This document shows, in pieces, positions 3,534 through 18,948 of a stretch of DNA of 64,000 nucleotides. The stretch's first letter is position 1. Each line of letters begins with the position of its first letter. A model generated the notes under the pieces. It saw only the letters and a list, made by a program, of their open reading frames with translations. It was not told the origin of the DNA and searched no databases. Origin of the DNA: Coriobacteriia bacterium (GTDB lineage: Bacteria > Actinomycetota > Coriobacteriia > WRKU01 > WQUG01); contig WRBC01000004.1 in assembly GCA_009779855.1 (NCBI GenBank), positions 30,769 to 94,768 of the forward strand, read 5' to 3'. A program made the position numbers and the translations under genes.

Positions 3534-4508
3534 ATGACCGCGATAAAACCGCGCAAAAAGAAAGAATTGCTTACTTTTCAAAATGCCATATTGGCACTGC
3601 AAAATTACTGGGCGGATTATGGCTGCGTTATTCTTCAGCCCTACGACACAGAGGTTGGTGCGGGGACCTTTCATCCAGCCACTGTATTGCGTAGTCTAGG
3701 ACCAGATAGCTGGAATACAGCTTACGTGCAACCTTCACGTCGCCCTACAGATGGACGATACGGTGAAAATCCAAATCGCCTGCAGCACTACTACCAGTTC
3801 CAAGTCATATTAAAGCCAAGTCCTGATAACGTGGTTGATCTCTACTTTAGCTCGCTTAAGGCTATCGGTATTGACCCAGCACAGCATGATATGCGCCTTG
3901 TTGAAGATGACTGGGAGTCTCCGACATTGGGTGCATGGGGCCTAGGTTGGGAGGTTTGGTTAAACGGGATGGAGGTTACTCAGTTTACTTACTTCCAGCA
4001 AGTTGGAGGATTTGAGTGTAAGCCAGTGCCTGCAGAGATAACCTATGGACTAGAGCGCCTAATGATGATTGTCCAAGATGTTGACAATGTATATGACCTA
4101 GTGTGGACCTTGTCTCCTGATGGTAGTCCTGTTAGTTATGGCGACGTGTTCAAGATTAACGAACGGCAGTACTCTGCCTACAATTATGAGGTCGCAAGCG
4201 TGCCAATGCTACTGGGCCTCTTTACGCAATTTGAAAAAGAGTGTACCCAGGCTCTAGAGGCAGAATTGCCTATTCCTGCCTATGACTATGTACTGAAGTG
4301 TAGCCATGTTTTTAATATGCTTGATGCGCGTGGTGCTATCAGCGCAACAGAGCGTCAGGCATACATTATGCGTGTTCGTAATCTTGCGAAGCTTTGTTGC
4401 GAAGGGTACCTGAATATCTTGCCTGATGACGGGGACGCGGGTCAGAAGAAAGAAAGAGGATGTGTGGATAAAGATAAGGAAGCTGCTGTGAAAGGGGGCG
4501 ATGCGTAA
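3534..4508 (+). CDS. glyQ: glycine--tRNA ligase alpha subunit
   Basis: '[34 protein letters not shown]' and '[23 protein letters not shown]' are hallmark GlyQ sequences. The stop overlaps the glyS start (TAATG). Confidence 0.95.
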
Positions 4509-6637
4509 TGGAGATTAAGCCCTATACCGCAGACTTGCTTTTTGAAATAGGGGCAGAAGAAATGCCCTCTACTCCCCTTAATGCGGCACATAAGCAATTA
4601 GAGGTACTTGCAAAAACTGCTTTTAGTGATGCGCGACTTAGCTATGAAGGTCTAGAGGTTTTTTCGACTCCTCGTAGACTATCCTTGCTAGTGAAGGCTA
4701 TTGCAGAGCGTCAAGAGGATATCAGGCTTGAATTTAAAGGACCTTCGAAACAGATTGCCTATGCAGAGGATGGGACTCCCCAGAAAGCATTGGAAGGGTT
4801 TGCTCGTGGCAAGGGTGTTGATTTAGAAGATGTTGAATTGCGCATTATTGATGGCGCAGAATATGTATACGCTGTTAGGGACGAAAAAGGACTTCCTGCT
4901 AAGGAAATACTTCCTGATCTTTTACAGGGGCTTATTACGGGGCTTGACTGGCCAAAGCGTCAAAGATGGGGCAGTGGAGATGAGACCTTCATTCGTCCTG
5001 TGCGTTGGATCCTGGCAATTTTGGGTCAAGATCTCATCCCTTTAAATTTTGGAAAGCTGCAGTCAGGAAATTTCACATATGGACACCGCTTTCTCTCGAC
5101 TCAACAGATTCCTATAGCTGCAATGCGCGAGTACAAAAATGTCCTACGGGGCAATAAGGTTATTGTTGACCAGGGTAAGCGCAGACAGATGATTCTTGAA
5201 AGCATTGCAGAGTATACTGCCCAACTACCTGAACCTGGTAGTCTAGCCCTTGTGCCAGATAAGGTTCTTGATGAGGTTGTAAACCTTGTAGAATACCCTA
5301 ATGCACTACTTTGCTCTTTCGAGGAAGAGTTCTTGCGAGTCCCGCGTGAAATTCTTGAATACGCCATGAATTCGCACCAGCGTTACTTTGCGATACAGTC
5401 AGAGGACGGCAGTTTAAGCAATCATTTTATCGTTATTTCTAATGGGGATCCCTTGCATGGTCAGCAGATTGCTGCAGGTCATGAGAGTGTTATTCGTGCA
5501 CGTCTAGCTGACGCAGCATTTTTCTATGATGAAGATTTGAGGGTTGGTCTTGATGGATGGCGAAAAAAGCTTGGCACCTTGCTATTCCAGCAAAAATTGG
5601 GAACCCTAGCGGATAAAAGCTTGCGCGTCACAAGACTCGTTGCTTATCTTTGTGAGGACTTAGACCTTCCCGCACAAACTACACAATCCGCCCTGCGCGT
5701 AGCAGAGCTTGCAAAGGCAGATCTGACAAGTAATACCGTAATTGAGTTTACGGAGCTTCAGGGTGTGATTGGTGCTTACTATGCTAAGGCTCAGGGTGAA
5801 AGTGACGAAGTGGCTGAAGCAATACGGCAGCATTATCTACCTCGTTATTCAGGTGATGATTTGCCAGCCAGCACTGAAGGACAATTAGTTTCGCTTGCCG
5901 ATAAGGTTGACACGGTAGTTGGTATTATCGCGGCAGGCTTTGCTCCGAAGGGGACAAGTGATCCTTATGCGCTGCGCAGAAATGCCATTGGTGTTTTGCG
6001 CATAGTTATGGACAGGCTTCCTCTTAATGTTGAGAAACTAATTAGAGAGGCTATAAAATCCCTGCCAGAGGGATTGAAGACGAACGAAAGCGGGCCTGAG
6101 GGGTCTGAAGACTGCACGGAAGAGTTGGTTCAAAAGGTTCTGAGGTTCTTTACTTCACGCCTTGACAGCATGTTACGTGACAGGGATTACTCAACAGAGG
6201 TTATTTCTGCCGTGCTTGCTGCAGCTGCCCAGAGCCCTGCTGATAGCGCGGCACGCTGTGAGGCTTTGCACGCTTTCTTAGGGGAGAGCAGTGCATGGGA
6301 AAACCTGTCTACAGCATATACACGTGCTAAAAATCTGAGTGATCCAGAGGCAGGTGTGAGCGTTGATGTTGCACTCCTTGATCAGCATGAGCAGGCGTTC
6401 TATGACGCGCTTGTTTCAGCAGGACCACGTATCCAAGTGCAGCTTGCTGAACAGCGCTATAGTGATTATTTAAGTGAGCTTGCTGATGTGCGCGAACCTC
6501 TGGATGCCTTCTTTGACAACGTAATGGTTATGGATGAAGATGAAACCTTGCGCCGGAATAGGTTGGCATTGCTTAATGTGTTTATAGCTCAGGTAGAACC
6601 CTTTGCTGACCTGCGAAGACTGTCGAAGCAGAAATAA
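4508..6637 (+). CDS. glyS: glycine--tRNA ligase beta subunit
   Basis: 709 aa, translationally coupled to glyQ. It has the N-terminal 'LLFEIGAEEMP' and internal 'YFAIQSEDG', 'GTSDPYALRR' GlyS motifs. Confidence 0.95.
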   Translation: MEIKPYTADLLFEIGAEEMPSTPLNAAHKQLEVLAKTAFSDARLSYEGLEVFSTPRRLSLLVKAIAERQEDIRLEFKGPSKQIAYAEDGTPQKALEGFARGKGVDLEDVELRIIDGAEYVYAVRDEKGLPAKEILPDLLQGLITGLDWPKRQRWGSGDETFIRPVRWILAILGQDLIPLNFGKLQSGNFTYGHRFLSTQQIPIAAMREYKNVLRGNKVIVDQGKRRQMILESIAEYTAQLPEPGSLALVPDKVLDEVVNLVEYPNALLCSFEEEFLRVPREILEYAMNSHQRYFAIQSEDGSLSNHFIVISNGDPLHGQQIAAGHESVIRARLADAAFFYDEDLRVGLDGWRKKLGTLLFQQKLGTLADKSLRVTRLVAYLCEDLDLPAQTTQSALRVAELAKADLTSNTVIEFTELQGVIGAYYAKAQGESDEVAEAIRQHYLPRYSGDDLPASTEGQLVSLADKVDTVVGIIAAGFAPKGTSDPYALRRNAIGVLRIVMDRLPLNVEKLIREAIKSLPEGLKTNESGPEGSEDCTEELVQKVLRFFTSRLDSMLRDRDYSTEVISAVLAAAAQSPADSAARCEALHAFLGESSAWENLSTAYTRAKNLSDPEAGVSVDVALLDQHEQAFYDALVSAGPRIQVQLAEQRYSDYLSELADVREPLDAFFDNVMVMDEDETLRRNRLALLNVFIAQVEPFADLRRLSKQK

Positions 6638-6647
6638 GTACCCTCTG

Positions 6648-7499
6648 ATGAATGAAGAAAAGAGACAATTAACACTGCACATATTGAGCGATTCAGTTGG
6701 GGAGACCGCTGATACTGTTGCACATATTATTGCGATTCAGTTCCCCCAATTCCACTGGAATTATGTCTCGACAACCATGATTGACAGTGTTGAGACTCTT
6801 CATGAGGCAGTACTTCCGCACCGGGGGGATCCAAATTACATATTTGTCTATACATTTACGAGCCCCGTTTTGCGTGAAGAGATGATCAGCCTCTGCCATC
6901 CAGATGAAGGAGAGGCAAATTGCGTACACTCTGTTGATGTATTGGGTGGCGGCCTCGATTTAGTGACTGACCATACAGGAGAGCCACCCTCAGGGATGGT
7001 GGGGATGCTCCATCAGGTTGATGATACCTATTTTAGTCGCATTGCAGCCATGGAATTTACGGTTAATCATGATGACGGGCAATTACCTGAAAGCCTGACA
7101 GAGGCAGATATTGTTCTAATCGGGGTATCACGTACCTCAAAGACTCCTTTGTCAATGTATCTGGCGCATCGCGGATTTAAAACGGCAAACATTCCTTTGA
7201 CCTTAGAAACAGAGCCTCCTCAACAGCTGTTCGAGGTTGAGTCTCGTAAAATATTTGGCCTTATGACGGGCATGGACACGCTAACAAAGATACGTCAGGA
7301 GCGGATGTCAGATATTGGCACCTATGTTCCTAGTTATGCTGACCCTAATTACGTACAGAAAGAATTCGACTACGCTCGCAAGCTTATGCGTCAGTTAGGC
7401 GCACTAATTATTAACACGGAAAAGCGTGCAATAGAAAGTGTGGCTCAAGAAATATTAGCTCATCTAAAACCGACTATGCGAAACACCTTAAATCGCTAG
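6648..7499 (+). CDS. pyruvate, phosphate dikinase / PEP synthase regulatory protein (DUF299 kinase/pyrophosphorylase)
   Basis: 'LHILSDSVGETA' N-terminus and the 'LIGVSRTSKTPLSMYLA' P-loop are typical of the PpsR/PDRP family. The ORF track begins at 6603 inside glyS; ATG 6648 is the likely start. Confidence 0.8.
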   Translation: MNEEKRQLTLHILSDSVGETADTVAHIIAIQFPQFHWNYVSTTMIDSVETLHEAVLPHRGDPNYIFVYTFTSPVLREEMISLCHPDEGEANCVHSVDVLGGGLDLVTDHTGEPPSGMVGMLHQVDDTYFSRIAAMEFTVNHDDGQLPESLTEADIVLIGVSRTSKTPLSMYLAHRGFKTANIPLTLETEPPQQLFEVESRKIFGLMTGMDTLTKIRQERMSDIGTYVPSYADPNYVQKEFDYARKLMRQLGALIINTEKRAIESVAQEILAHLKPTMRNTLNR

Positions 7500-9268: not shown

Positions 9269-9344
9269 GGGGCCTTAGCTCAGCTGGGAGAGCGCATGGC
9301 TGGCAGCCATGAGGTCAGGGGTTCGACCCCCCTAGGCTCCACCA
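9269..9344 (+). tRNA. tRNA-Ala (anticodon GGC)
   Basis: Folded by hand into a 76-nt cloverleaf. Acceptor stem is GGGGCCT/AGGCTCC with the G3:U70 alanine identity pair. D-arm is GCTC-AGCTGGGA-GAGC. Anticodon stem is CATGG/CCATG with loop CTGGCAG. T-arm is AGGGG-TTCGACC-CCCCT, and the CCA is encoded. Confidence 0.93.
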
Positions 9345-9345
9345 T
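9300..9345 (+). repeat. attL: core (ctggcagccatgaggtca) plus tRNA 3' half within the intact tRNA-Ala
   Basis: Direct repeat of 18903-18948. The only 5 differences form two compensatory T-stem pairs plus one T-loop base. Confidence 0.85.
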
Positions 9346-9400: not shown

Positions 9401-9424
9401 TTTGCCGCAAATCTGCCGCAAATG
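9401..9424 (+). repeat. arm repeat, left copy (tttGCCGCAAATctGCCGCAAATg)
   Basis: 24 nt identical to 18785-18808. It contains an internal tandem 9-mer GCCGCAAAT at 11-bp periodicity and lies between attL and the integrase 3' end. Confidence 0.7.
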
Positions 9425-9452: not shown

Positions 9453-10655
9453 TTAAAGTTTGCTATCCCTGTTCCTTGGAACATGATTTTCCTTGATTTT
9501 CCTAGCGTAACTTTCTTTTGCTTCTGTTATTACAGATGTGAATACTTCTGCGACTTCTTTACCACTGCCAGACACGGTTCGTCCGTATACGTCTAGAGTC
9601 ATAGCACTTGTTGCATGTCCGACTCGCTCTTGTACCTTCTTGACATCGACACCAGCATCAAGTAAGTAAGAGATTTGCGTGTTCCGTGTCTCATGCGTAA
9701 CATAATGAGAAAGTCCGACCTTCTCAAGGTACTCTTTACGCCATCGTGAATAGTTTCGATAGTCGTGCCTATTGCCTATTTGGTCTGTGATAATAGGAGT
9801 TGTTGCCAATTGTTCCGTATCCCATTCAGATAGAATATTTTGTTGTGTCACTTGCCACTCTTTTAAGCATTGCAGCGTATCACCGTCCAAATAAACAAGT
9901 CTCTCCTCACCTGACTTTGTTGACTTGATTTCCATATAGGGAGTTATAGACTGTTTTATAATTATTCCACCATCTTCAAAATCTATATGTCTCCACTCAA
10001 GTCCTAACACTTCTCCAATTCTCACTCCCAATACCGCTGCTAAGCGAACTCCAATTACGCGAGGGTCTGAACTGCCTTCAGATTCTAACGCCGTAAACAG
10101 CTTGCCTAGGTCTGTCTTTTCAAATGGTTGGCGGTTTGGGATATCTCTGCGAGGAGTTTTCAATTTGTTCATGGGGTTTGATAAGCGGTAATCATTAAGT
10201 ACTGCTTCATTCATGATTTGACTGCATTTTTTATGGACAGCAAGCATCGTTGTGTTTCCAAGGTTGTATCTTTTCTTGATTTTGGCAAGAGCCGATTTAA
10301 TGGTTGAGGCATCTAGTTCTTTGATTGCTATGTCACCAATAATAGCGTTCAATCGATTAATGTATAACCGTTCTTGCTCAAGTGAGCCACGACCAACCTC
10401 ATTAGCCTCAATTCTAGCGTCATGCCACATTTGAGCAAACTGACCAAAGGTAGCAGTATCAGCATCTAACCGCATTCCGTTCTCTATTTCCATTCGCAGT
10501 TCAGCAAGCGCACGAGTAGCATCTGCCTTGCTCCCTTTGATGTTTCTATATTTACGGCGGTACTTGCCAGTTAGCGGGTCACGACCATAAGGCTGACAGA
10601 TTTCCCAGCTCTTCTTGCCACGCTTACGAATACTCCCTGCTCCACGACATTTCAT
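9453..10655 (-). CDS. int: tyrosine-type site-specific integrase
   Basis: 400 aa. The N-terminal 'GSIRKRGKKSWEI...DPLTGKYRRKYRN' is an arm-binding-type domain. Catalytic motifs are 'RIGEVLGLEWRHID', 'HETRNTQISYLL' and 'GHATSAMTLDVYGR'. The gene is adjacent to the tRNA. Confidence 0.93.
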   Translation of the reverse strand: MKCRGAGSIRKRGKKSWEICQPYGRDPLTGKYRRKYRNIKGSKADATRALAELRMEIENGMRLDADTATFGQFAQMWHDARIEANEVGRGSLEQERLYINRLNAIIGDIAIKELDASTIKSALAKIKKRYNLGNTTMLAVHKKCSQIMNEAVLNDYRLSNPMNKLKTPRRDIPNRQPFEKTDLGKLFTALESEGSSDPRVIGVRLAAVLGVRIGEVLGLEWRHIDFEDGGIIIKQSITPYMEIKSTKSGEERLVYLDGDTLQCLKEWQVTQQNILSEWDTEQLATTPIITDQIGNRHDYRNYSRWRKEYLEKVGLSHYVTHETRNTQISYLLDAGVDVKKVQERVGHATSAMTLDVYGRTVSGSGKEVAEVFTSVITEAKESYARKIKENHVPRNRDSKL

Positions 10656-10658
10656 AAA

Positions 10659-11828
10659 TTACTCGTCCTTCCCTCTTGGCACAAGTTCACGGTTGTAATA
10701 AACTCGACATTGATCCGAGCAATATCTTGTTTTCTTTGTCATTCTTGCAATAGGTCGCTGACAGTATGCACAAAATGGGTGAGGACTATTGTTCAGAATG
10801 GAGGCAGCCGTGAAAATCAATTCTTCCCATACATTTGTTGCCTTCCCTCTTGTGTACAGATTTCTATTTCTATCAAAGAAGAAGTGAGATGCTGATGTCA
10901 CATGCCTATCAATTAATGTATTGAGTAGAAGCTCCACCAACATTGGGGCGCAGTCACGGATGTAATCTTCGCGCGACTTTTCACTTGAAAGGTCTTTTAT
11001 TTCTTCGGTAAGGTAGATGGTTGCCAATGTATAGTTACCATTTACCTTTTTGGTTGGGTAGTTGTTTTCTAAAAATGGATGCGTGACGGCATTAGGAATG
11101 AAGTCATCCACAAAGTTATCGGTATCGTTTAGCATCAAAACAGACGATGTCAAGACAATGTCTTTAACTCCAGGAGTGTCGGTATCAATATGCTTTTTTG
11201 TGACAGTGATGTTTTCTGCATTTCCAATTAGTTCTGCTGCTTCACTCAAAAGAAAGCCAACAAAATAATTGCCCCTGCTATTTTTTTCAAAGATGAAACG
11301 TTTTCCAATATCGGATGCTATGCCATGAACCTTGGATATGGGCATAATATCTTCTCCGTTATTATCTTTGACATAGATGTTGCTGCCGATTGCTGCCAAC
11401 TGAAGCATTGTTCTTAGGAGTGTTTGAGCGTGGAAGAAGGTAGGCACATCAAAGAAGCGTCTATTCGATTTGCCCTCATTGCGTTCGACTTGTTTTTCCG
11501 TAAGATAGATTGGTTTTGCGCTACGTAAATAGCTTTGCAGATTTTCTTTGGGGGCGAAGAGGTGGGGGATTGAATAGCTTGCTGCATAACGAGATTCAAA
11601 AACAGGCCATTTATAACGCATAAAGTTTTCTAGCTCGCCCCAAGAGTTAACCTTGAGGAACTTTCCTAAAATCTCCCGCTGCTCTTTTTCGCACTCGACA
11701 TTCCAAGATTCATCAGAATCAGCGATTAGCAGCATAACATCTTTGTTAACTGCAAGCAGCTTACTTGGCAAAAGCATGTTACCTCCGTTCGGTGTTACGC
11801 AAAATGGAGTTATTTTTGCGAGTTCCAT
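10659..11828 (-). CDS. hypothetical protein with C-terminal CxxC...CxxxC zinc ribbon (Stl-like position)
   Basis: 389-aa ORF whose stop is 3 nt before the int start, so the two are co-transcribed. C-terminus is 'FCAYCQRPIARMTKKTRYCSDQCRVYYNR'. I recognise no other family. Confidence 0.6.
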   Translation of the reverse strand: MELAKITPFCVTPNGGNMLLPSKLLAVNKDVMLLIADSDESWNVECEKEQREILGKFLKVNSWGELENFMRYKWPVFESRYAASYSIPHLFAPKENLQSYLRSAKPIYLTEKQVERNEGKSNRRFFDVPTFFHAQTLLRTMLQLAAIGSNIYVKDNNGEDIMPISKVHGIASDIGKRFIFEKNSRGNYFVGFLLSEAAELIGNAENITVTKKHIDTDTPGVKDIVLTSSVLMLNDTDNFVDDFIPNAVTHPFLENNYPTKKVNGNYTLATIYLTEEIKDLSSEKSREDYIRDCAPMLVELLLNTLIDRHVTSASHFFFDRNRNLYTRGKATNVWEELIFTAASILNNSPHPFCAYCQRPIARMTKKTRYCSDQCRVYYNRELVPRGKDE

Positions 11829-12858: not shown

Positions 12859-13455
12859 ATGTCTAAGAAAGTAGAAAAGTGGCTAAAGCCAGAAGGCTTA
12901 AAGCAGATTGAGGAATGGGCAAAGCAGGGCATTAGTAAGCACGGCATAGCCCTCATGATGGGTGTTCACAGAACGACCCTTTGGGAGTGGTGCAAAGAAC
13001 ATGAGTCCTTGCGAATTGCCGTAGAGATTGGACGTGAGTATCTTATACAGGATTTACAGTTAGCCCTTTACAATGCTGCTCTTGGTGAAGTTGCAACGGA
13101 AGCCACAGTCATCGAAACCGAAGTTTTCCTAGATGGACGCGAGGCAGTTAGAAAAAGAAATACAACCACCCGAAAAGAGAAGCCAGATACGACTGCTCTG
13201 ATTTTCCTTTTGAAAAACTTGTCGCGCTACCATCCTGTTAGCAATCCAGATGGCTGGTTATCTGATCCTGCTACTCAATTTAGCAGAGAGTTGACAATGA
13301 TGATGAACGGCTTGGTAAAAGCCCCTGAAGTCTTTGCACTGGTGGCAGAAGAAATCAACACCTTGCCAGACTTAGCAGCAGTAACCGCACGCACAATTGA
13401 GAAAAACAATGCCAAATATAAATTAAGTTCAACAGAGGACACTTCAAAAGAATAA
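12859..13455 (+). CDS. terS: phage terminase small subunit-like protein
   Basis: N-terminal HTH 'GISKHGIALMMGVHRTTLWEWCKEH' and central 'LALYNAALG ... KPDTTALIFLLKN' resemble the TerS family motif (PDTTAxIFWLKNR). ATG 12859 follows an AGGAGAG SD; the ORF-track start 12703 overlaps rep. Confidence 0.65.
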   Translation: MSKKVEKWLKPEGLKQIEEWAKQGISKHGIALMMGVHRTTLWEWCKEHESLRIAVEIGREYLIQDLQLALYNAALGEVATEATVIETEVFLDGREAVRKRNTTTRKEKPDTTALIFLLKNLSRYHPVSNPDGWLSDPATQFSRELTMMMNGLVKAPEVFALVAEEINTLPDLAAVTARTIEKNNAKYKLSSTEDTSKE

Positions 13456-13772
13456 TCCGACAAATCCGACACCAGAAAAGGGCGCACATCACAATCGGTT
13501 GCTTTGAGGTATATTGTCATTGAATGCGATAATTGCTCCTGCAGAAAATAATCGAGTTAGTCGCCCAATGTGTCTAAGGATCGAGAGAAATAGTGAACAC
13601 TTGCAAAAGGTGTACATCACCACATAGCTCCAAGAGTATGTATAACCGCACTGCCAAAGGTACTATCTGTGAGAAAACAGGTCGTGATGTTACGGACAGT
13701 TCATTCAAGTGGATAGAAAATAATCGCTGTGAAAAATACATTGAATGTTCTTGCATCAGCACGATTTGTAGC

Positions 13773-13967
13773 CTATGTGCTGCGCCAGAAAAATAGCGGG
13801 AAACTTGTGGAAATAAACATCACACCCACTGTCATGGCTGCGAAGTCATTAACTACTGTGTGAGATTTAGACCAAAAGAATAAATGACGCAGTTCATGTG
13901 GTGGTGCGCCAGAGTACAGGGAGTGCTTGCTGTTCTGCACATCTTCTCGTTCCTGCGTACAGAACAT
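13773..13967 (-). CDS. small ORF with HEXXH motif (possible remnant of an ImmA/IrrE-like metallopeptidase)
   Basis: 64 aa, preceded by a strong GGGAGGAA SD 7 nt before the ATG. It contains 'PPHELRHLFF' (HEXXH). It is too short for a full peptidase and the surrounding ~1 kb is coding-poor. Confidence 0.3.
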   Translation of the reverse strand: MFCTQEREDVQNSKHSLYSGAPPHELRHLFFWSKSHTVVNDFAAMTVGVMFISTSFPLFFWRST

Positions 13968-14230
13968 AAGAGATTCCTCCCGTAAAGAGTAGACTGCTGC
14001 TATCGCGGACTAGACATCTACTCCCCACTCCCCGTGTGTACATTTTAGCAAGATTTTCTTCTATGGCAGTTTCGCCTACCTCAATATATTAAGCTCTGTA
14101 ACGGCTTCTGCTTAAACCCCATCCTTTTTGCTTGCTTCACAAGCTCGACAACTCGGGGGATATTATTGGTTGATAGTTGGCAGGTGCTGATATACGTCTT
14201 CGACGCTGTAGCCTTGCGCTATAATCGTAT

Positions 14231-14355
14231 CTGCCTTAACTGCTGGAGACAGTAGACTAACAACTTCATACTTGTGTCAATCACACCATAATGGGGCGTA
14301 ATCCTCATAACTTGGTGTGGTTGCAGTTTTCTGTTTCCCGCAGCAGTTAAGGCAG
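14231..14355 (+). promoter_or_regulatory. structured leader: perfect 15-bp long-range stem enclosing a 7-bp hairpin
   Basis: CTGCCTTAACTGCTG (14231-14245) is the exact reverse complement of CAGCAGTTAAGGCAG (14341-14355). The inner pair is CACACCA (14283-14289) / TGGTGTG (14313-14319). TATAAT at 14220-14225 lies just upstream and the cargo operon starts at 14433. Confidence 0.4.
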
Positions 14356-14432
14356 GGGATTGCGCCTTCTTGTCTGTTTTTGTGCGCTTACCCTTGCTCT
14401 GTTGATAAAGCAACTGAAGGGAAGTGATCGTT

Positions 14433-14885
14433 ATGTCTACTAAGAAGCCTAATGCCAATCCAAGTCCTGGACTTAATATAGCAACCTTAAAGAAGCCGTT
14501 TCTGATTTCTTTTACTGCCTCTTTCGTGGCTATGGTGGTGTTTGTGCTTGGGTTTTTCATTTGGCAAGGTGGCAGAATCCCTTTTGGTGGGCTGCTCTAC
14601 TTTGTTGCTCTATCGTTCGTTATATGTTGGATTGTATCTCTGCCAATTAGCGTTGCAAGCATAGTGCTTAAAAGACCAGTTCTTATTGCTTTCGTTGTTG
14701 CGTATCTTGTGTTGGCAATCTTTTTGTTTAGTAGACCCATAGGATTTGTTGAACTCACTATAGCGTTTGCTATTTCCGCAGTCATTCTTTTGCTTGTTTT
14801 TGTACCAATCGCAAAAAAGAAATACTCCAGTGAAAAGTCGAAAGAAGATATTGTGGCAATGTTGAAAGACATTGACTCCGATTAG
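14433..14885 (+). CDS. small integral membrane protein (about 4 TM segments), unknown function
   Basis: About 150 aa with four hydrophobic stretches ('FLISFTASFVAMVVFVLGFFIW', 'LLYFVALSFVICWIVSLPISV', 'VLIAFVVAYLVLAIFLF', 'LTIAFAISAVILLLVFVPI') and a charged C-tail. It is the first gene of the cargo operon. Confidence 0.6.
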   Translation: MSTKKPNANPSPGLNIATLKKPFLISFTASFVAMVVFVLGFFIWQGGRIPFGGLLYFVALSFVICWIVSLPISVASIVLKRPVLIAFVVAYLVLAIFLFSRPIGFVELTIAFAISAVILLLVFVPIAKKKYSSEKSKEDIVAMLKDIDSD

Positions 14886-14904
14886 GCTTGTGATAGGAGG
14901 ATAA

Positions 14905-15453
14905 ATGAAAATAGCAACTGTAAAAGCAAGCGGCAAGGTCATCGACTTCAAAGATAATGTGTTTTTGATTGATGGTCAGAGTGCTGCCAAAAGTCGGATT
15001 GAGGAATACGATCGTCTGGGTGTTCTTGAATGGGCAAATAGTGAAGTCCGCGACTATGCTTTGAGCAGCCAATCAGCAACTGTTGCTGTCAACACAAGAC
15101 ATGCCCCATTAGGTACGACAATAGAAACTGGCAGTAGTGATGCGGCTTGGTCGAAGTACATTGTCATTGCCATAACAGTGATAGTTATTGGTGTTGTAGG
15201 AGCATTTGCTATCAGTTGGTACATTGATGAGCAGTCCATACAGACTGGTCATGTTGTAGAAGTATTTTCGCACGATAGAAGCACTGGAAATAGATACGTT
15301 ATTGTTTCTGATAATAATAGCAATAGGGGTCATCTTGCGAGGACTCACCGTGATGTTTCAGTTGGTGACACAGTGCGCTTTAGGTTACAGGATGATAGTG
15401 CGAGGCGAGCCAGCATGGGCTTAACAGATATAACAATCATTTCTGTAAGATGA
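14905..15453 (+). CDS. single-pass membrane protein, paralog 1 (shared N-module, TM, small beta-rich C-domain)
   Basis: GGAGG SD upstream. The N-terminal 43 aa align without gaps to paralog 2 (F15, F20, DGQ23-25, EYD34-36, LG38-39, LEW41-43). The TM is 'YIVIAITVIVIGVVGAFAISWYI'. Confidence 0.65.
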   Translation: MKIATVKASGKVIDFKDNVFLIDGQSAAKSRIEEYDRLGVLEWANSEVRDYALSSQSATVAVNTRHAPLGTTIETGSSDAAWSKYIVIAITVIVIGVVGAFAISWYIDEQSIQTGHVVEVFSHDRSTGNRYVIVSDNNSNRGHLARTHRDVSVGDTVRFRLQDDSARRASMGLTDITIISVR

Positions 15454-15489
15454 CAAGATAAAGAGTGCATAAGCAGGAAGGGTGGCAAA

Positions 15490-16056
15490 GTGGAAATAGC
15501 AAAGCTCACAGGCACAGAAAAAGTATTATGTTTCGACAAGGGAACATTTAGTCTTGATGGTCAAGTGATTGATGCAGCAAAGTTAGCAGAGTATGACAAT
15601 CTCGGTATCCTTGAGTGGAAAAGTGATGAGTTGCAGCTGCTTGCGTACTCAATGATTCAAAACACCACAACAAATGCGCCTGCAGCAGATGCGTCAAATG
15701 CTCAATCTCAACAGCAGAACCAAGGCGGTTTTAGCGGAGAACGTGATGGACGCATATATCTCAATGATGTAGACATCACCAATGAAGACCCTTACTGGCA
15801 AGAGGAGTTTATTAAGATATATCAGAGCAAGGGTAGCTATACAGGAAAGTTCAACTGGGCTGCATTTCTTGCGGGGGCATTTTGGTTCTTTGCTAAAAAC
15901 TTGCCTGTTGTTGGCTTGATTTGGACTGCGGTAGCCATTGTTGGCGGTCTATTGACTGCCAGCGTTTTAGCGATAGGTGTATGGATACTTGCTGGTTTTA
16001 GGGCAAACTACATCAGATATAAAAAGGTTATCGAACACACAGAAATCTACTTCTAG
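15490..16056 (+). CDS. membrane protein, paralog 2 (shared N-module, Q/N-rich linker, DUF2628-like 2-TM C-domain)
   Basis: GTG start after a GGAAGGGTGG SD. N-module is 'FSLDGQVIDAAKLAEYDNLGILEWKSDE'. The C-terminal 'KFNWAAFLAGAFWFFAKNLPVVGLIW' resembles DUF2628. Confidence 0.65.
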   Translation: MEIAKLTGTEKVLCFDKGTFSLDGQVIDAAKLAEYDNLGILEWKSDELQLLAYSMIQNTTTNAPAADASNAQSQQQNQGGFSGERDGRIYLNDVDITNEDPYWQEEFIKIYQSKGSYTGKFNWAAFLAGAFWFFAKNLPVVGLIWTAVAIVGGLLTASVLAIGVWILAGFRANYIRYKKVIEHTEIYF

Positions 16057-16065
16057 GAGAGCTGA

Positions 16066-16998
16066 ATGAAAAAGCAAGTGGCAACATTTATCGCAGGATC
16101 ATTTTCTAACGTTGGCGAAGGTTTGTGGCGAGACGATAGAGGTGCATACTTTGTCGGTGGTGAGATGCCAATATCTACAGAGCGCATCGAAGAAATGGAC
16201 ACTCTAGGAGAACTGGAGTGGCTTTCTGGTGAGAGGTTAATGTTGTCACCTAGTGAGGCGGCTAGTGAGCAACAAGCTCATGAGAAGCCCCAGAATACAA
16301 TCGGTGAAATAGGCTTCACAGAAGCAGAGGAAGTCGCAGAGGAGGCTTCTGCTGCTGCGATAGAGCCTAAAGCATCAGCACAAGAAGAAACATCAAGTAC
16401 AAAAAAGAAGAAACTATCTTTGATTGCAGCTATTGTAGCCGCTGTAACCATCGGCATAGTTGCTGCTGTGCTTCTGTTGGGTCAGACTAGCGATGAATCT
16501 ACTGGTGAGCCACCAGTTGTTATTGACATGTCTGACCTGGGATTATCAGAACCAGAGGATGCTCCCGAACCAGAGCCTGTAGAAGAGCAAGAGCTAGGGG
16601 AATCTGCGCTGGAGTCAGAACCTTCCTTTTACGGCGTTACAGATGAGCAGTTTGACAGAGAGATGGGTGAAGCTCGCTCTGACATTGAATATTACGGACG
16701 CTATGCTGACGAGTTCTTCCCAGAAGAAGGATTTTACGGAATATGGGTATCAGCTAGTAGAGATAGGATAGAAGCAGAAAGAACACTCACCCAAGTTCTT
16801 GATAGACTGTTTGAAAGTGAAGGACTAGGTGCTGGTCTTGTTACTACAAGTTCTTGGAGTAACCTTAACCCAGATGTGTGGCACGCTGTTTGTGTCGGGC
16901 CATTTCTTTCTCAAGCAGAAGCTGAAGCAGCACTAGCAGCTGTAAGGGCAGCAGGATATAGTGATGCTTACGTTAAGTTTAGTGGGGCGATACGGTAG
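16066..16998 (+). CDS. single-pass membrane protein, paralog 3 (shared N-module, acidic linkers, TM, SPOR-like C-domain)
   Basis: N-module 'RIEEMDTLGELEWLSGE' is offset by 9 aa. The TM is 'LSLIAAIVAAVTIGIVAAVLLLG'. The C-terminal 'FYGIWVSASRDRIEAERT...WHAVCVGPFLSQAEAEAALAAVRAAGYSDAYVKF' follows the SPOR peptidoglycan-binding pattern. Confidence 0.65.
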   Translation: MKKQVATFIAGSFSNVGEGLWRDDRGAYFVGGEMPISTERIEEMDTLGELEWLSGERLMLSPSEAASEQQAHEKPQNTIGEIGFTEAEEVAEEASAAAIEPKASAQEETSSTKKKKLSLIAAIVAAVTIGIVAAVLLLGQTSDESTGEPPVVIDMSDLGLSEPEDAPEPEPVEEQELGESALESEPSFYGVTDEQFDREMGEARSDIEYYGRYADEFFPEEGFYGIWVSASRDRIEAERTLTQVLDRLFESEGLGAGLVTTSSWSNLNPDVWHAVCVGPFLSQAEAEAALAAVRAAGYSDAYVKFSGAIR

Positions 16999-17031
16999 GT
17001 ATCTTGCAGTCTCTTGGATGAGGAGTCGATT

Positions 17032-17982
17032 ATGGAGCAATGCGAGGAAAGCTATGGGATTACAGCAAGTATAGGTGTGGACTTCTCTGTTTCAGAAGAT
17101 GGACGTATCTACATTGCTGACATATCTGCCCTTTCAGCCAATGCACTACTTGAAATCTATGCAACCAGTAGAGGCACTAGTTTTTTACAGGACAAGTTTG
17201 TGGCATTAGTTGCAGATGGAGAGATTATTTCAAAAGGAAGTCTGCCCTTTGGAAATGCTACGTTGCGTAGAGTTACAGATAGACTTGCTAGTGTGACGAT
17301 AAGCGAGGGGCAGGTTAAGGTTAAACTTCAGAAGCGACTTCCTGGAGAGCGTAGCACCATACGCTCAAGACTATGGAAAAAGAAATGCTTGACCTGTTCA
17401 GATGGAAGTGATGATTCTCCCAGTAGGATAGAGTCTGCAAAAGAAGACTGTCACCTAGAAGAACTCAAACAAAATCTAAAGGAGTTAGATGTCTTCGTAA
17501 AGAACTCACGCGGAATCACAGCAGAGGAATACGAGAAGACAGAAAGCATCAATAATGCTCCTCCGCAATATACTGTCAAAATAAGGCAAGGTAATCCGCT
17601 TAGAGCCATTGTTAGTCGCAGCTTTGAGTATATAGATTACAGGCAAGCTGAACATGAGCGCATCATGGGAGAGAAAGTAAGGGTCTTACAGAGTCAAAAG
17701 AATATGCGGCTGTGCGAAGTTGAAGAACGTACAGGCGGAGACTATGTCATTTATGGTCTTACCCATTTTAGGAAAACCTTAGAAGATAAGATTCACTTCG
17801 TCTCTGAAAACCCAGAACAGTTTGCAGAAAAAGAGCCGTACCCTAGAGAGGTAGAAGATATTGCTGCTGACCTTGTTTGGGATGGGGTGTATGAAAATCC
17901 CTATCATCGTGAACCAGAATGTCATAAACGAGTAGTCCGAGAATATATCGACAGGCTGGAAGACTACTATTGGCGACTATAG
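17032..17982 (+). CDS. hypothetical cytoplasmic protein, no recognisable domain
   Basis: About 316 aa, charged, with no TM segment. ATG 17032 follows a GGATGAGGAG SD; the ORF-track TTG start is 17014. It follows paralog 3 by about 30 nt on the same strand. Confidence 0.55.
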   Translation: MEQCEESYGITASIGVDFSVSEDGRIYIADISALSANALLEIYATSRGTSFLQDKFVALVADGEIISKGSLPFGNATLRRVTDRLASVTISEGQVKVKLQKRLPGERSTIRSRLWKKKCLTCSDGSDDSPSRIESAKEDCHLEELKQNLKELDVFVKNSRGITAEEYEKTESINNAPPQYTVKIRQGNPLRAIVSRSFEYIDYRQAEHERIMGEKVRVLQSQKNMRLCEVEERTGGDYVIYGLTHFRKTLEDKIHFVSENPEQFAEKEPYPREVEDIAADLVWDGVYENPYHREPECHKRVVREYIDRLEDYYWRL

Positions 17983-18032: not shown

Positions 18033-18485
18033 ATGGCAAGGAGAAAACACTTGAAGGTATATCTCGACATTTGCTGCTTTAATCGTCCTTTTGACGATCA
18101 AGTGCAGCTCAAGATTAAACTAGAGACTGATGCCAAGTTATTTGTGCAACAGCAGATTCTGCTAGGGAAATATCAGCTAGTGTGGTCATATATTCTTGAC
18201 TATGAAAACAGTAAAAGCCCTTTCAAAGAGCAGAGCCGAGCAATAGCTGCGTGGGAGAAGCTCTCCTGCGAAACTATTGACGAAACACCTGCTGTGCTTG
18301 CTCGTGCTAAGAAACTAATAGACTCTGGCATAAAGACAATGGATGCCTTGCACATTGCCTGTGCCGCAGAGAGTGGCTGTGATTACTTTATTACAACTGA
18401 CCGCCGCCTACTTTCAGCGGCAGAGCCAGACGTTAAGATTGTAAACCCTGTACAATTCATTCAAGAGATTGAGGTGACAACATGA
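18033..18485 (+). CDS. PIN-domain protein (VapC-like toxin candidate)
   Basis: N-terminal acidic 'VYLDICCFNRPFDDQ' and C-terminal 'MDALHIACAAESGCDYFITTDRRLL' match the PIN-fold conserved Asp positions. Confidence 0.7.
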   Translation: MARRKHLKVYLDICCFNRPFDDQVQLKIKLETDAKLFVQQQILLGKYQLVWSYILDYENSKSPFKEQSRAIAAWEKLSCETIDETPAVLARAKKLIDSGIKTMDALHIACAAESGCDYFITTDRRLLSAAEPDVKIVNPVQFIQEIEVTT

Positions 18486-18688
18486 CCAGTGAAACCGTAC
18501 TAAAAAATGAAGGCTTGCAATTGCTCACTAAGCATCTGGGCATGGTAGAAGCTGAACGCTTTATCGCACTGATGGCTCGTGAGCCATTTGATTACACGGA
18601 ATGGCGCAGAGATAAGTTCGATGACGTTTCTCTTGAAGAGCTAAGTGCTGCTGCCATGAAGCATGTCAGTGCAAAGAGGAACATGTGA
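18482..18688 (+). CDS. small protein translationally coupled to the PIN gene (putative antitoxin/partner)
   Basis: 68 aa with an ATGA start/stop overlap with the PIN ORF. I recognise no family. Confidence 0.45.
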   Translation: MTSETVLKNEGLQLLTKHLGMVEAERFIALMAREPFDYTEWRRDKFDDVSLEELSAAAMKHVSAKRNM

Positions 18689-18784: not shown

Positions 18785-18808
18785 TTTGCCGCAAATCTGC
18801 CGCAAATG
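18785..18808 (+). repeat. arm repeat, right copy (tttGCCGCAAATctGCCGCAAATg)
   Basis: 24 nt identical to 9401-9424 in the same orientation. It lies about 95 nt inside attR. Confidence 0.7.
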
Positions 18809-18902
18809 TGCAGCGTTTCAGGTAGTGCCAGATGTAGTCAACTAGCCTATCTACCTGCGCAGATAGTGCTAAACATTACCTGCTATTACCTATCTGAAAA
18901 CA

Positions 18903-18948
18903 CTGGCAGCCATGAGGTCACCGGTTCGATCCCGGTAGGCTCCACCAT
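18903..18948 (+). repeat. attR: core plus displaced tRNA-Ala 3' half (no 5' half present)
   Basis: ctggcagccatgaggtca is followed by T-arm ACCGG-TTCGATC-CCGGT, then AGGCTCCACCA. It starts exactly at the anticodon loop and the preceding sequence is unrelated to the tRNA. Confidence 0.85.

Follow-up and report, generated by a model that had tools for sequence, protein, structure and literature searches.

The window analyzed here, a 64,000-nucleotide (nt) stretch of contig WRBC01000004.1 of a Coriobacteriia bacterium, contains an operon of five co-directional open reading frames (ORFs) on the plus strand at 14433-17982, located at the right (attR) end of a 9.6-kb tRNA-Ala island. Three of the encoded membrane proteins begin with the same N-terminal module, and the operon is preceded by a predicted structured leader RNA. 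The gaps between the five ORFs are 19, 36, 9 and 33 nt, and a purine-rich Shine-Dalgarno (SD) sequence lies 5-10 nt 5' of each of the five start codons, in agreement with an earlier note on this DNA, which had placed five ORFs at these positions, each with its own SD sequence and with gaps of about 10-40 nt. The genes are listed below, with comparison loci designated by L-numbers.

14433-14885, plus strand: P0, the first gene, 150 amino acids (aa), four transmembrane segments; sole homolog found in L088 (37%); no family
14905-15453, plus strand: P1, first-position module (residues 1-58), one transmembrane segment and a small beta-rich ectodomain; no family
15490-16056, plus strand: P2, second-position module (residues 1-57), Q/N-rich linker and DUF2628-like C-terminal hairpin of two transmembrane segments
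16066-16998, plus strand: P3, last-position module (residues 1-65), acidic linker, one transmembrane segment preceded by KKKK, and SPOR domain (residues 222-303)
17032-17982, plus strand: P5, 316-aa soluble protein with no transmembrane segment; no family

The transmembrane layout (four segments in P0, one in P1, a hairpin in P2 and one in P3) is the one given by the earlier note, whose SPOR assignment also stands, with a score for PF05036 in P3 of 27.5 bits against a gathering cut-off of 21 (E=4e-6). Its description of P2 as DUF2628-like holds in part: P2 by itself scores 18.3-20.4 bits against PF10947, below the Pfam cut-off of 23, while five of seven relatives match at E<=0.01 (best E=1.8e-6). 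P2, which is 89% identical to its counterpart in L088, resembles DUF2628 proteins in the two-segment hairpin and in the preceding YWQxEF...GKFNWAAF motif; its DUF2628 relatives are found in many phyla at 30-47% identity, and differ in that they begin with a zinc ribbon or with nothing, rather than with the module. The note had recognized no family for P0 or P5, and searches of Pfam, NCBIfam, PHROGs and PADLOC likewise returned none for either. Pfam scans of the relatives of P0, of the two halves of P5 and of the alternative last-position ectodomain described below gave nothing, and the scan of P1 relatives gave only weak hints of an OB fold in the ectodomain. P5 is a fusion of an N-terminal half (residues ~15-130) and a C-terminal half (~138-316), which are encoded by separate, overlapping genes in swapped order in L088 (5725-6937) and L125 (8001-9159), the C-terminal half also being found alone in L087; a single-sequence AlphaFold2 model of P5 has a predicted local distance difference test score (pLDDT) of 35.

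The shared N-terminal module

The relationship between the three middle proteins, which the earlier note had read by eye, is statistically significant. BLASTP aligns P1 with P2 at E=1e-11 (25/68 identical, gap-free across residues 1-57) and P1 with P3 at E=9e-5, and a hidden Markov model (HMM) of the family scores P1, P2 and P3 at 81-87 bits each and matches no other ORF of the window. The identities that had been listed for P1 and P2 (F15, F20, D23-G24-Q25, E34-Y35-D36, L38-G39 and L41-E42-W43) are correct, as is the offset of the P3 core by 9 residues (W52 versus W43), which is mostly accounted for by a 6-residue insertion in P3; given this insertion, the module aligns end to end and W43 is invariant. 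Two candidate additional copies of the module, the N-terminal half of P5 and an internal DGRIY segment of P2, were rejected, as neither is matched by the HMM.

The AlphaFold2 model of the module, computed with nine homologs, is a compact β4-α-β-α fold with a pLDDT of 90.9, in which the predicted elements are strands at residues 2-6, 12-16, 19-22 and 25-27, a helix at 29-38, a strand at 41-43 and a helix at 46-57. The positive residues that precede the transmembrane segment, together with the absence of a signal peptide, indicate an N-in topology for the module proteins, as expected from the earlier description of the module as non-hydrophobic and presumably cytoplasmic. The module is thus predicted to be a cytoplasmic domain of ~55 residues, oriented N-in and borne by three membrane proteins whose C-terminal portions are unrelated. 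No match to the module was found in Pfam, NCBIfam, PHROGs, PADLOC or PDB sequences, even for 25 members at E<=10, or by Foldseek in the PDB (best E=1.1, template-modelling score 0.36), and a Foldseek search of BFVD produced only a weak, non-significant likeness to small uncharacterised phage proteins (E>=0.16). The module family, for which the note had also recognized no relative, is previously undescribed.

These searches bear on the possibility that the proteins are transmembrane sensors of the anti-sigma type, in which the N-terminal domain would hold a cytoplasmic regulator and the various ectodomains would sense different cues. The RsgI paralogs of Clostridia (the sigma-I/RsgI systems of Clostridium thermocellum) have an N-terminal cytoplasmic domain of ~50 aa, one transmembrane segment and differing extracellular domains, so the design logic of a common cytoplasmic domain joined through one segment to variable ectodomains is the same. 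The RsgI families nonetheless differ from the present case in several respects: none of the loci has a sigma-factor gene and the arrays have no other conserved regulator as a neighbour, RsgI_N and zf-HC2 are absent from the Pfam matches of the 25 members at E<=10, the Foldseek search of the PDB is without a match, the second-type protein is a membrane hairpin with no ectodomain, and the paralogs described here lie in a single operon. An RsgI-like role is for these reasons very unlikely.

Relatives of the module proteins were found by an exhaustive HMMER scan of a P1, P2, P3 and P5 concatenate against 1.84 billion representatives, which recovered full-length relatives of P1, P2 and P3. Word-indexed homology searches, a tool that is weak for a domain of ~55 residues, had returned only P1 itself when queried with P1 and nothing when queried with short module alignments. 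A search of 185,579 reference species genomes for module patterns gave no match, nor did IMG/VR (2.9 million viral contigs) contain the module or P5. The module is carried by twelve Joint Genome Institute (JGI) metagenome loci; sample 3300009784, the only one from JGI that was linked to a publication, is a metagenome of higher-termite gut compartments. LeuS shares 65% identity with its counterpart in the termite-gut Coriobacteriia metagenome-assembled genome (MAG) Lab288P4bin85, and the best matches to RecA, a protein too conserved (63-71% identity across phyla) to serve as a taxonomic anchor, are mostly from Actinomycetota; a Coriobacteriia relative is therefore the probable host.

In every locus of sufficient length two or three module genes stand in tandem, arrays of this kind being present in L082, L083, L084, L088, L090, L092, L095 and L097, so that the set described in the earlier note does co-occur outside the window as far as the module genes are concerned; P0 and P5 accompany them only in island-borne cassettes. 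The module sequences fall into three position-linked clusters, with the P1 type first, the P2 type second and the P3 type last, and module identity is 45-61% within a type as compared with 24-32% between types. The second-type module is always joined to a DUF2628-like body, and wherever the upstream side of an array can be seen, a first- or second-type gene stands before the last-type gene. The existence of distinct position-specific types with these levels of identity implies that the triplication is old and that each type has been maintained; tandem duplication alone, or gene conversion, is thereby made less likely. The settings of the arrays differ: they occur on integrase-bearing islands (the window and L088), directly 3' of 23S-5S rRNA operons (L084 and L092) and beside rho/rpmE (L090/L091). 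In L084 (at 1-400) and in L092 (at 20-135 and 5893-6685) a chromosomal array is found directly downstream of a 5S rRNA gene, and the L092 array, together with SEC-C and AbiE-like genes, fills the interval from the 5S gene to the beginning of a 23S gene.

Exchange of the module with zinc ribbons

The same membrane proteins also occur with a different N-terminal domain. The protein P0003 is 86% identical to residues 64-310 of P3, yet its N-terminus is a zinc ribbon of the form CxxC...CxxC; it is encoded in L119, a separate island from the same sample, as part of a three-gene array in which every member has an N-terminal zinc ribbon. A second case is provided by L125, the sister island of L088, with which it shares an integrase lineage and flanks of 79-85% nt identity: a zinc-ribbon array occupies the site at which L088 has its module array, and the last gene keeps the same ectodomain family. 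P0005 and a 287-aa protein of L097 carry the module and the zinc ribbon together. The zinc-ribbon bitopic proteins (Zn_Ribbon_1, PF13240, or DZR, PF12773) resemble the module proteins in their gene positions, linker, transmembrane segment, ectodomain families, islands and leader RNA, and the difference between them lies in the N-terminal domain itself, the module being about twice as long, having the predicted β4-α-β-α fold, containing no cysteine pairs (none within residues 1-60 of P1-P3) and being able to stand in tandem with a ribbon. No zinc-ribbon Pfam match was found in the 25 module sequences at E<=10. The possibility that the module is a degenerate zinc ribbon was ruled out by the presence of both domains in tandem in P0005 and the 287-aa L097 protein.

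The first genes of the zinc-ribbon arrays (L097 840-1280, L119 6688-7131, L125 5516-5944 and L126 1093-1593) encode proteins of ~145-165 aa with a double zinc ribbon and two transmembrane segments, and a G(A/G)DFYT motif is conserved in three of the four. In L097 the same two-segment body has a different, non-ribbon N-terminus, a further N-terminal swap, at the position occupied by P0 in the window.

The DNA of the window operon is itself a mosaic, in which 14832-16414 resembles L088 (72%), 16253-16998 resembles the zinc-ribbon-SPOR gene of L119 (89%), 17075-17380 resembles the second P5-like gene of L088, and 17451-17969 resembles L087. Judged by these alignments, P3 is a recent chimera of an L088-like 5' part and the body of a zinc-ribbon-SPOR gene. 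This bears directly on one of the roles raised by the earlier note, division-site targeting, according to which the SPOR domain would take the complex to septal peptidoglycan and modify division. The SPOR match of P3 is above threshold and there are more than 100 close SPOR relatives, the L119 island adjoins PASTA-kinase and FtsW/PBP genes, and P3 is like the SPOR proteins of the FtsN, DedD and CwlC type in its N-in transmembrane segment, long acidic linker and C-terminal SPOR domain. Its N-terminal domain is, however, unrelated to that of FtsN, and SPOR is found only in the P3 of the window, all of the other last-type proteins bearing a different ectodomain. Since P3 is a recent recombinant, SPOR does not belong to the conserved features of the system, and a division-site function of the system as a whole is scarcely probable at all.

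The free exchange and combination of the module with the zinc ribbon could also be taken to argue for a generic role, in which case there would be no joint complex: the proteins would be tandem surface-protein paralogs that act singly, and the module or ribbon would be a fast-folding plug that fixes the N-in topology or aids insertion. The ectodomains are mutually unrelated and the number of genes per array ranges from 2 to 4, as would be expected for such paralogs. A generic plug, on the other hand, needs no three distinct types in a fixed gene order, with the last-type gene always following a first- or second-type gene where the upstream side is visible, and the tight spacing of the genes, with overlapping stops and starts in L088, suggests co-translation. 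That the paralogs act independently is accordingly regarded as unlikely. The alternative reading of the module as a common cytoplasmic handle is supported, at the level of sequence comparison, by the three module paralogs with their position types and by the exchange with zinc ribbons at the same positions.

The structured leader RNA

When the sequences that precede the cassette in four islands were aligned, a conserved structured element came to light just upstream of the operon. Neither this element nor the interchange of module and zinc ribbon had been noticed in the earlier note, whose coordinates begin immediately downstream. The features of the element in the window are the following.

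14217-14225, plus strand: box resembling an extended -10 promoter (TGcgcTATAAT), separated from the leader by 6-7 nt and at the same distance in 11 of 11 copies examined
14232-14376, plus strand: structured 5' leader RNA of ~145 nt (130.7 bits with covariance model R1)
14350-14385, plus strand: terminator-like hairpin and U-tract, which overlaps the 3' strand of the closing helix, contains the anti-box and is followed by a C-rich, anti-SD-like stretch

The leader of the window is closed by a helix between 14232-14245 and 14341-14354, contains a GNRA hairpin, and has a box (about 14293-14306) that is complementary to an anti-box (14355-14368). Each copy has a closing helix of 12-17 base pairs (bp), which differs in sequence from copy to copy, a GNRA-capped hairpin, and a box:anti-box pairing of 14-18 bp that spans the terminator-like hairpin. 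In each copy the 3' end of the closing helix abuts the terminator-like hairpin, which shares nucleotides with both that helix and the anti-box. Covariance model R1 was built from four copies, and its automatic consensus chose the box:anti-box helix and dropped the closing helix, which was therefore counted apart from the consensus as a pseudoknot-style bracket.

The leader lies upstream of the first gene of the arrays in 10 loci (those matched in addition to the four model copies being L122, L082, L084, L092, L090 and L095), and it precedes nearly every array, module-type and zinc-ribbon-type alike. Three copies occur in the Coriobacteriia MAG; the covariance model gives no hit to 1.35 Mb of control DNA or to any other part of the window. 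The distance from the leader to the start of the gene is 45-56 nt in 9 of the 10 copies with a visible downstream start. In L129, from this MAG, one copy stands before the gene of an AMP-binding enzyme and an opposite-strand copy at 4113-4245 (minus strand) stands before a small ORF, with a KilA-N gene between the two copies and leuS adjacent.

Over 12 copies, 94.1% of the cells in the proposed helices can pair, compared with 76.2% in shuffled alignments (a value as high being reached in 0/500) and with 35-46% when one partner is slid along the other. Compensatory double changes occur at 23/33 of the leader pairs, and the closing helix covaries at 7/10 pairs even though it lies outside the model from which the alignment was built. 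The single-sequence fold of the window leader has a z-score of -7.0. The compensatory changes show that the leader helices have been kept, and the predicted closing helix, box:anti-box helix and terminator-like hairpin would be mutually exclusive pairings. A conserved structure in a 5' untranslated region that is supported by covariation is the mark by which riboswitches are recognized, and the architecture of this leader looks like that of a riboswitch or attenuator: a promoter lies just before a covarying multi-helix element, and a long-range helix competes with a terminator-like hairpin. The leader differs from the known elements of this kind in matching no Rfam 15 family, permissive searches of the window island and six loci having returned only tRNA, rRNA and chance miRNA matches, and in having a U-tract after the hairpin in some copies only. 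A literature search on Coriobacteriia riboswitch candidates, on the combination of zinc ribbon and SPOR, and on DUF2628 found nothing relevant.

The island and the interpretation of the cassette

The island that carries the operon is bounded by a duplication of the end of tRNA-Ala(GGC) (9269-9344). Its ends, and two neighbouring features, are as follows.

9300-9345, plus strand: attL, formed by the 3' end (46 nt) of tRNA-Ala(GGC) and marking the left limit of the 9.6-kb island
18903-18948, plus strand: attR, duplicate of the tRNA-Ala 3' end, 89% identical to 9300-9345
13919-14052, no strand assigned: conserved non-coding block, 83% identical to L125 5014-5131 and 75% to L088 2559-2688; reading frame not conserved
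18033-18485 and 18482-18688, plus strand: PIN-domain gene (32.1 bits) and overlapping 68-aa gene

The island encodes a tyrosine integrase, an AlpA-like HTH_17 protein, a RepB-type Rep (Rep_OBD and RepB_C; Rep_OBD 1e-37) and a TerS-like protein (phrog_309, 2e-25). An integrase, att repeats in a tRNA gene, a replication gene, a TerS-like gene and a size of ~10 kb are the features by which phage-inducible chromosomal islands (PICIs) and other phage satellites are recognized, and the predicted gene set is satellite-like, with cargo near attR as the earlier note had proposed. The island differs from PICIs in showing no sign of a helper phage, of capsid remodelling or of packaging, and the same cargo occurs off-island too.

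An identical 24-nt direct repeat, TTTGCCGCAAATCTGCCGCAAATG, is present just inside both island ends, at 9401-9424 and 18785-18808; it is made up of a pair of 11-nt units, a further unit, in degenerate form, being found at 18796-18819, and the repeats may be arm-type recombinase sites. Beside the integrase in all four of the islands compared there is a gene for a protein of ~380-450 aa without a family (window 10659-11828, minus strand; L088 8646-9794; L119 8910-10097, minus strand; L125 10505-11845), which has a basic, cysteine-rich C-terminal tail, the only part in which similarity is seen (27%). The ORFs of at least 100 aa in the window (1-64000) are nearly all on the plus strand, the main exceptions being two island genes at 9453-11828, and the guanine-cytosine skew is positive over the whole 64,000 nt, so that the bias in gene orientation is extreme. 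The conserved block at 13919-14052 holds a long-range GGGAGTG/CACTCCC stem, and its counterpart in L088 and L125 comes after a conserved gene of 83-104 aa that is missing from the window; no convincing ORF was found in 13455-14230. The PIN-domain gene and its 68-aa partner are nearly the same as a pair that follows the zinc-ribbon array of L126 (2576-3225; proteins 97-98% and DNA about 95% identical), so the pair seems from this comparison to travel with the right end of the cassette. An assignment of the pair as a VapBC-type toxin-antitoxin system was rejected: the small gene lies downstream, overlapping the stop of the PIN gene, and there is no upstream partner.

The location of the operon on an island had suggested in the earlier note a role in phage interference or superinfection exclusion, in which a membrane complex encoded by the island would block adsorption or DNA entry and the ectodomains would diversify in an arms race. 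The arrays do ride on at least four different integrase-bearing islands (the window, L088, L119 and L125), Abi_2, AbiE-like, PIN/RelB, T5orf172 and RtcB/RF-1 genes are among their neighbours, and handles and ectodomains are shuffled between near-identical genes. The 5027 models of PADLOC-DB v2, however, produce no match beyond low-complexity noise, the sole hit being that of the acidic linker of P3 to PD-T4-6 (E=7e-4), with none for P0, P1, P2 or P5; a Kiwa-like reading of the operon, with a four-transmembrane protein (as KwaA) and a soluble protein of ~315 aa (as KwaB), was rejected for the same lack of a PADLOC match. Nor is the module or P5 found among the viral contigs of IMG/VR. Several arrays are chromosomal, beside rRNA operons or rho/rpmE, a riboswitch-like leader is more typical of physiological than of defence genes, and one copy of the leader precedes the gene of an AMP-binding enzyme. 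On balance the proposed anti-phage function is doubtful. The array is, as its genomic settings indicate, mobile on several islands, yet not confined to them.

The interpretation that we favour, and to which we would give a little less than an even chance, is that the locus forms an accessory envelope cassette which is regulated by RNA and moves horizontally, in an uncultured termite-gut actinobacterium that is probably a relative of the Coriobacteriia. The extended -10 promoter would start transcription of the ~145-nt structured leader, which would switch the operon on or off upon some signal, by transcription attenuation, by masking of the SD sequence, or by both. The module would act as a protein-protein handle and would do the same job as the zinc ribbon. 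First- and second-type modules might bind last-type modules, or all of them might bind a common cytoplasmic partner, and the proteins of an array would then assemble into one hetero-oligomeric membrane complex which presents exchangeable outer domains to the cell wall: the beta-rich domain, the DUF2628 hairpin, and the SPOR domain or its alternative ectodomain. P0 and P5 would be accessories of the island-borne version. A more specific form of this interpretation, possible but rather improbable, is that the leader represents a new class of riboswitch, responsive to an envelope-linked metabolite or ion, and governs a new modular hetero-oligomeric envelope complex of termite-gut Coriobacteriia, with module- or ribbon-docked subunits whose outer domains are swapped by recombination and which is spread on satellite-like islands.

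Several observations weigh against the accessory-cassette interpretation. On the protein side, BLASTP gives no significant pairwise match between P2 and P3, so that the two are linked only transitively, through P1; some arrays are without the second type, and L122 is without a last-type member; and P0 and P5, which accompany island-borne cassettes of either handle type, are absent from the chromosomal arrays and from most arrays overall. On the RNA side, the U-tract follows the hairpin only in some copies (the window, L125 and L122), which makes the expression platform uncertain and, given the C-rich anti-SD-like stretch as well, leaves termination and SD masking as candidate read-outs, singly or together; the closing and box:anti-box helices could coexist as a pseudoknot instead of alternating; the statistics on the structure rest on 12 related sequences; and the leader copy before the AMP-binding enzyme (PF00501, 2e-69; L129 5905-7853, in the MAG) does not precede a membrane array. 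Finally, all of the sequences come from one habitat, the termite gut, and the sampling is therefore narrow.

Taken at the level of sequence, the locus brings together, inside known kinds of system, a domain family and an RNA motif that are both new. The bacterial membrane proteins whose cytoplasmic N-terminus is a zinc ribbon form a large class for which we know of no function, and the swap of ribbon and module between near-identical proteins turns the function of the ribbon into a testable question about docking partners. To our knowledge, very little regulation has been described in Coriobacteriia-like gut bacteria. The leader constitutes a new structured motif for cis-regulation, well supported and with a defined regulon, and its ligand or effector would reveal the signal to which these envelope proteins respond. 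More generally, the case illustrates how accessory envelope genes are built from shuffled pieces, namely a handle, a linker with its transmembrane segment, and an ectodomain, and are spread on small integrative islands.

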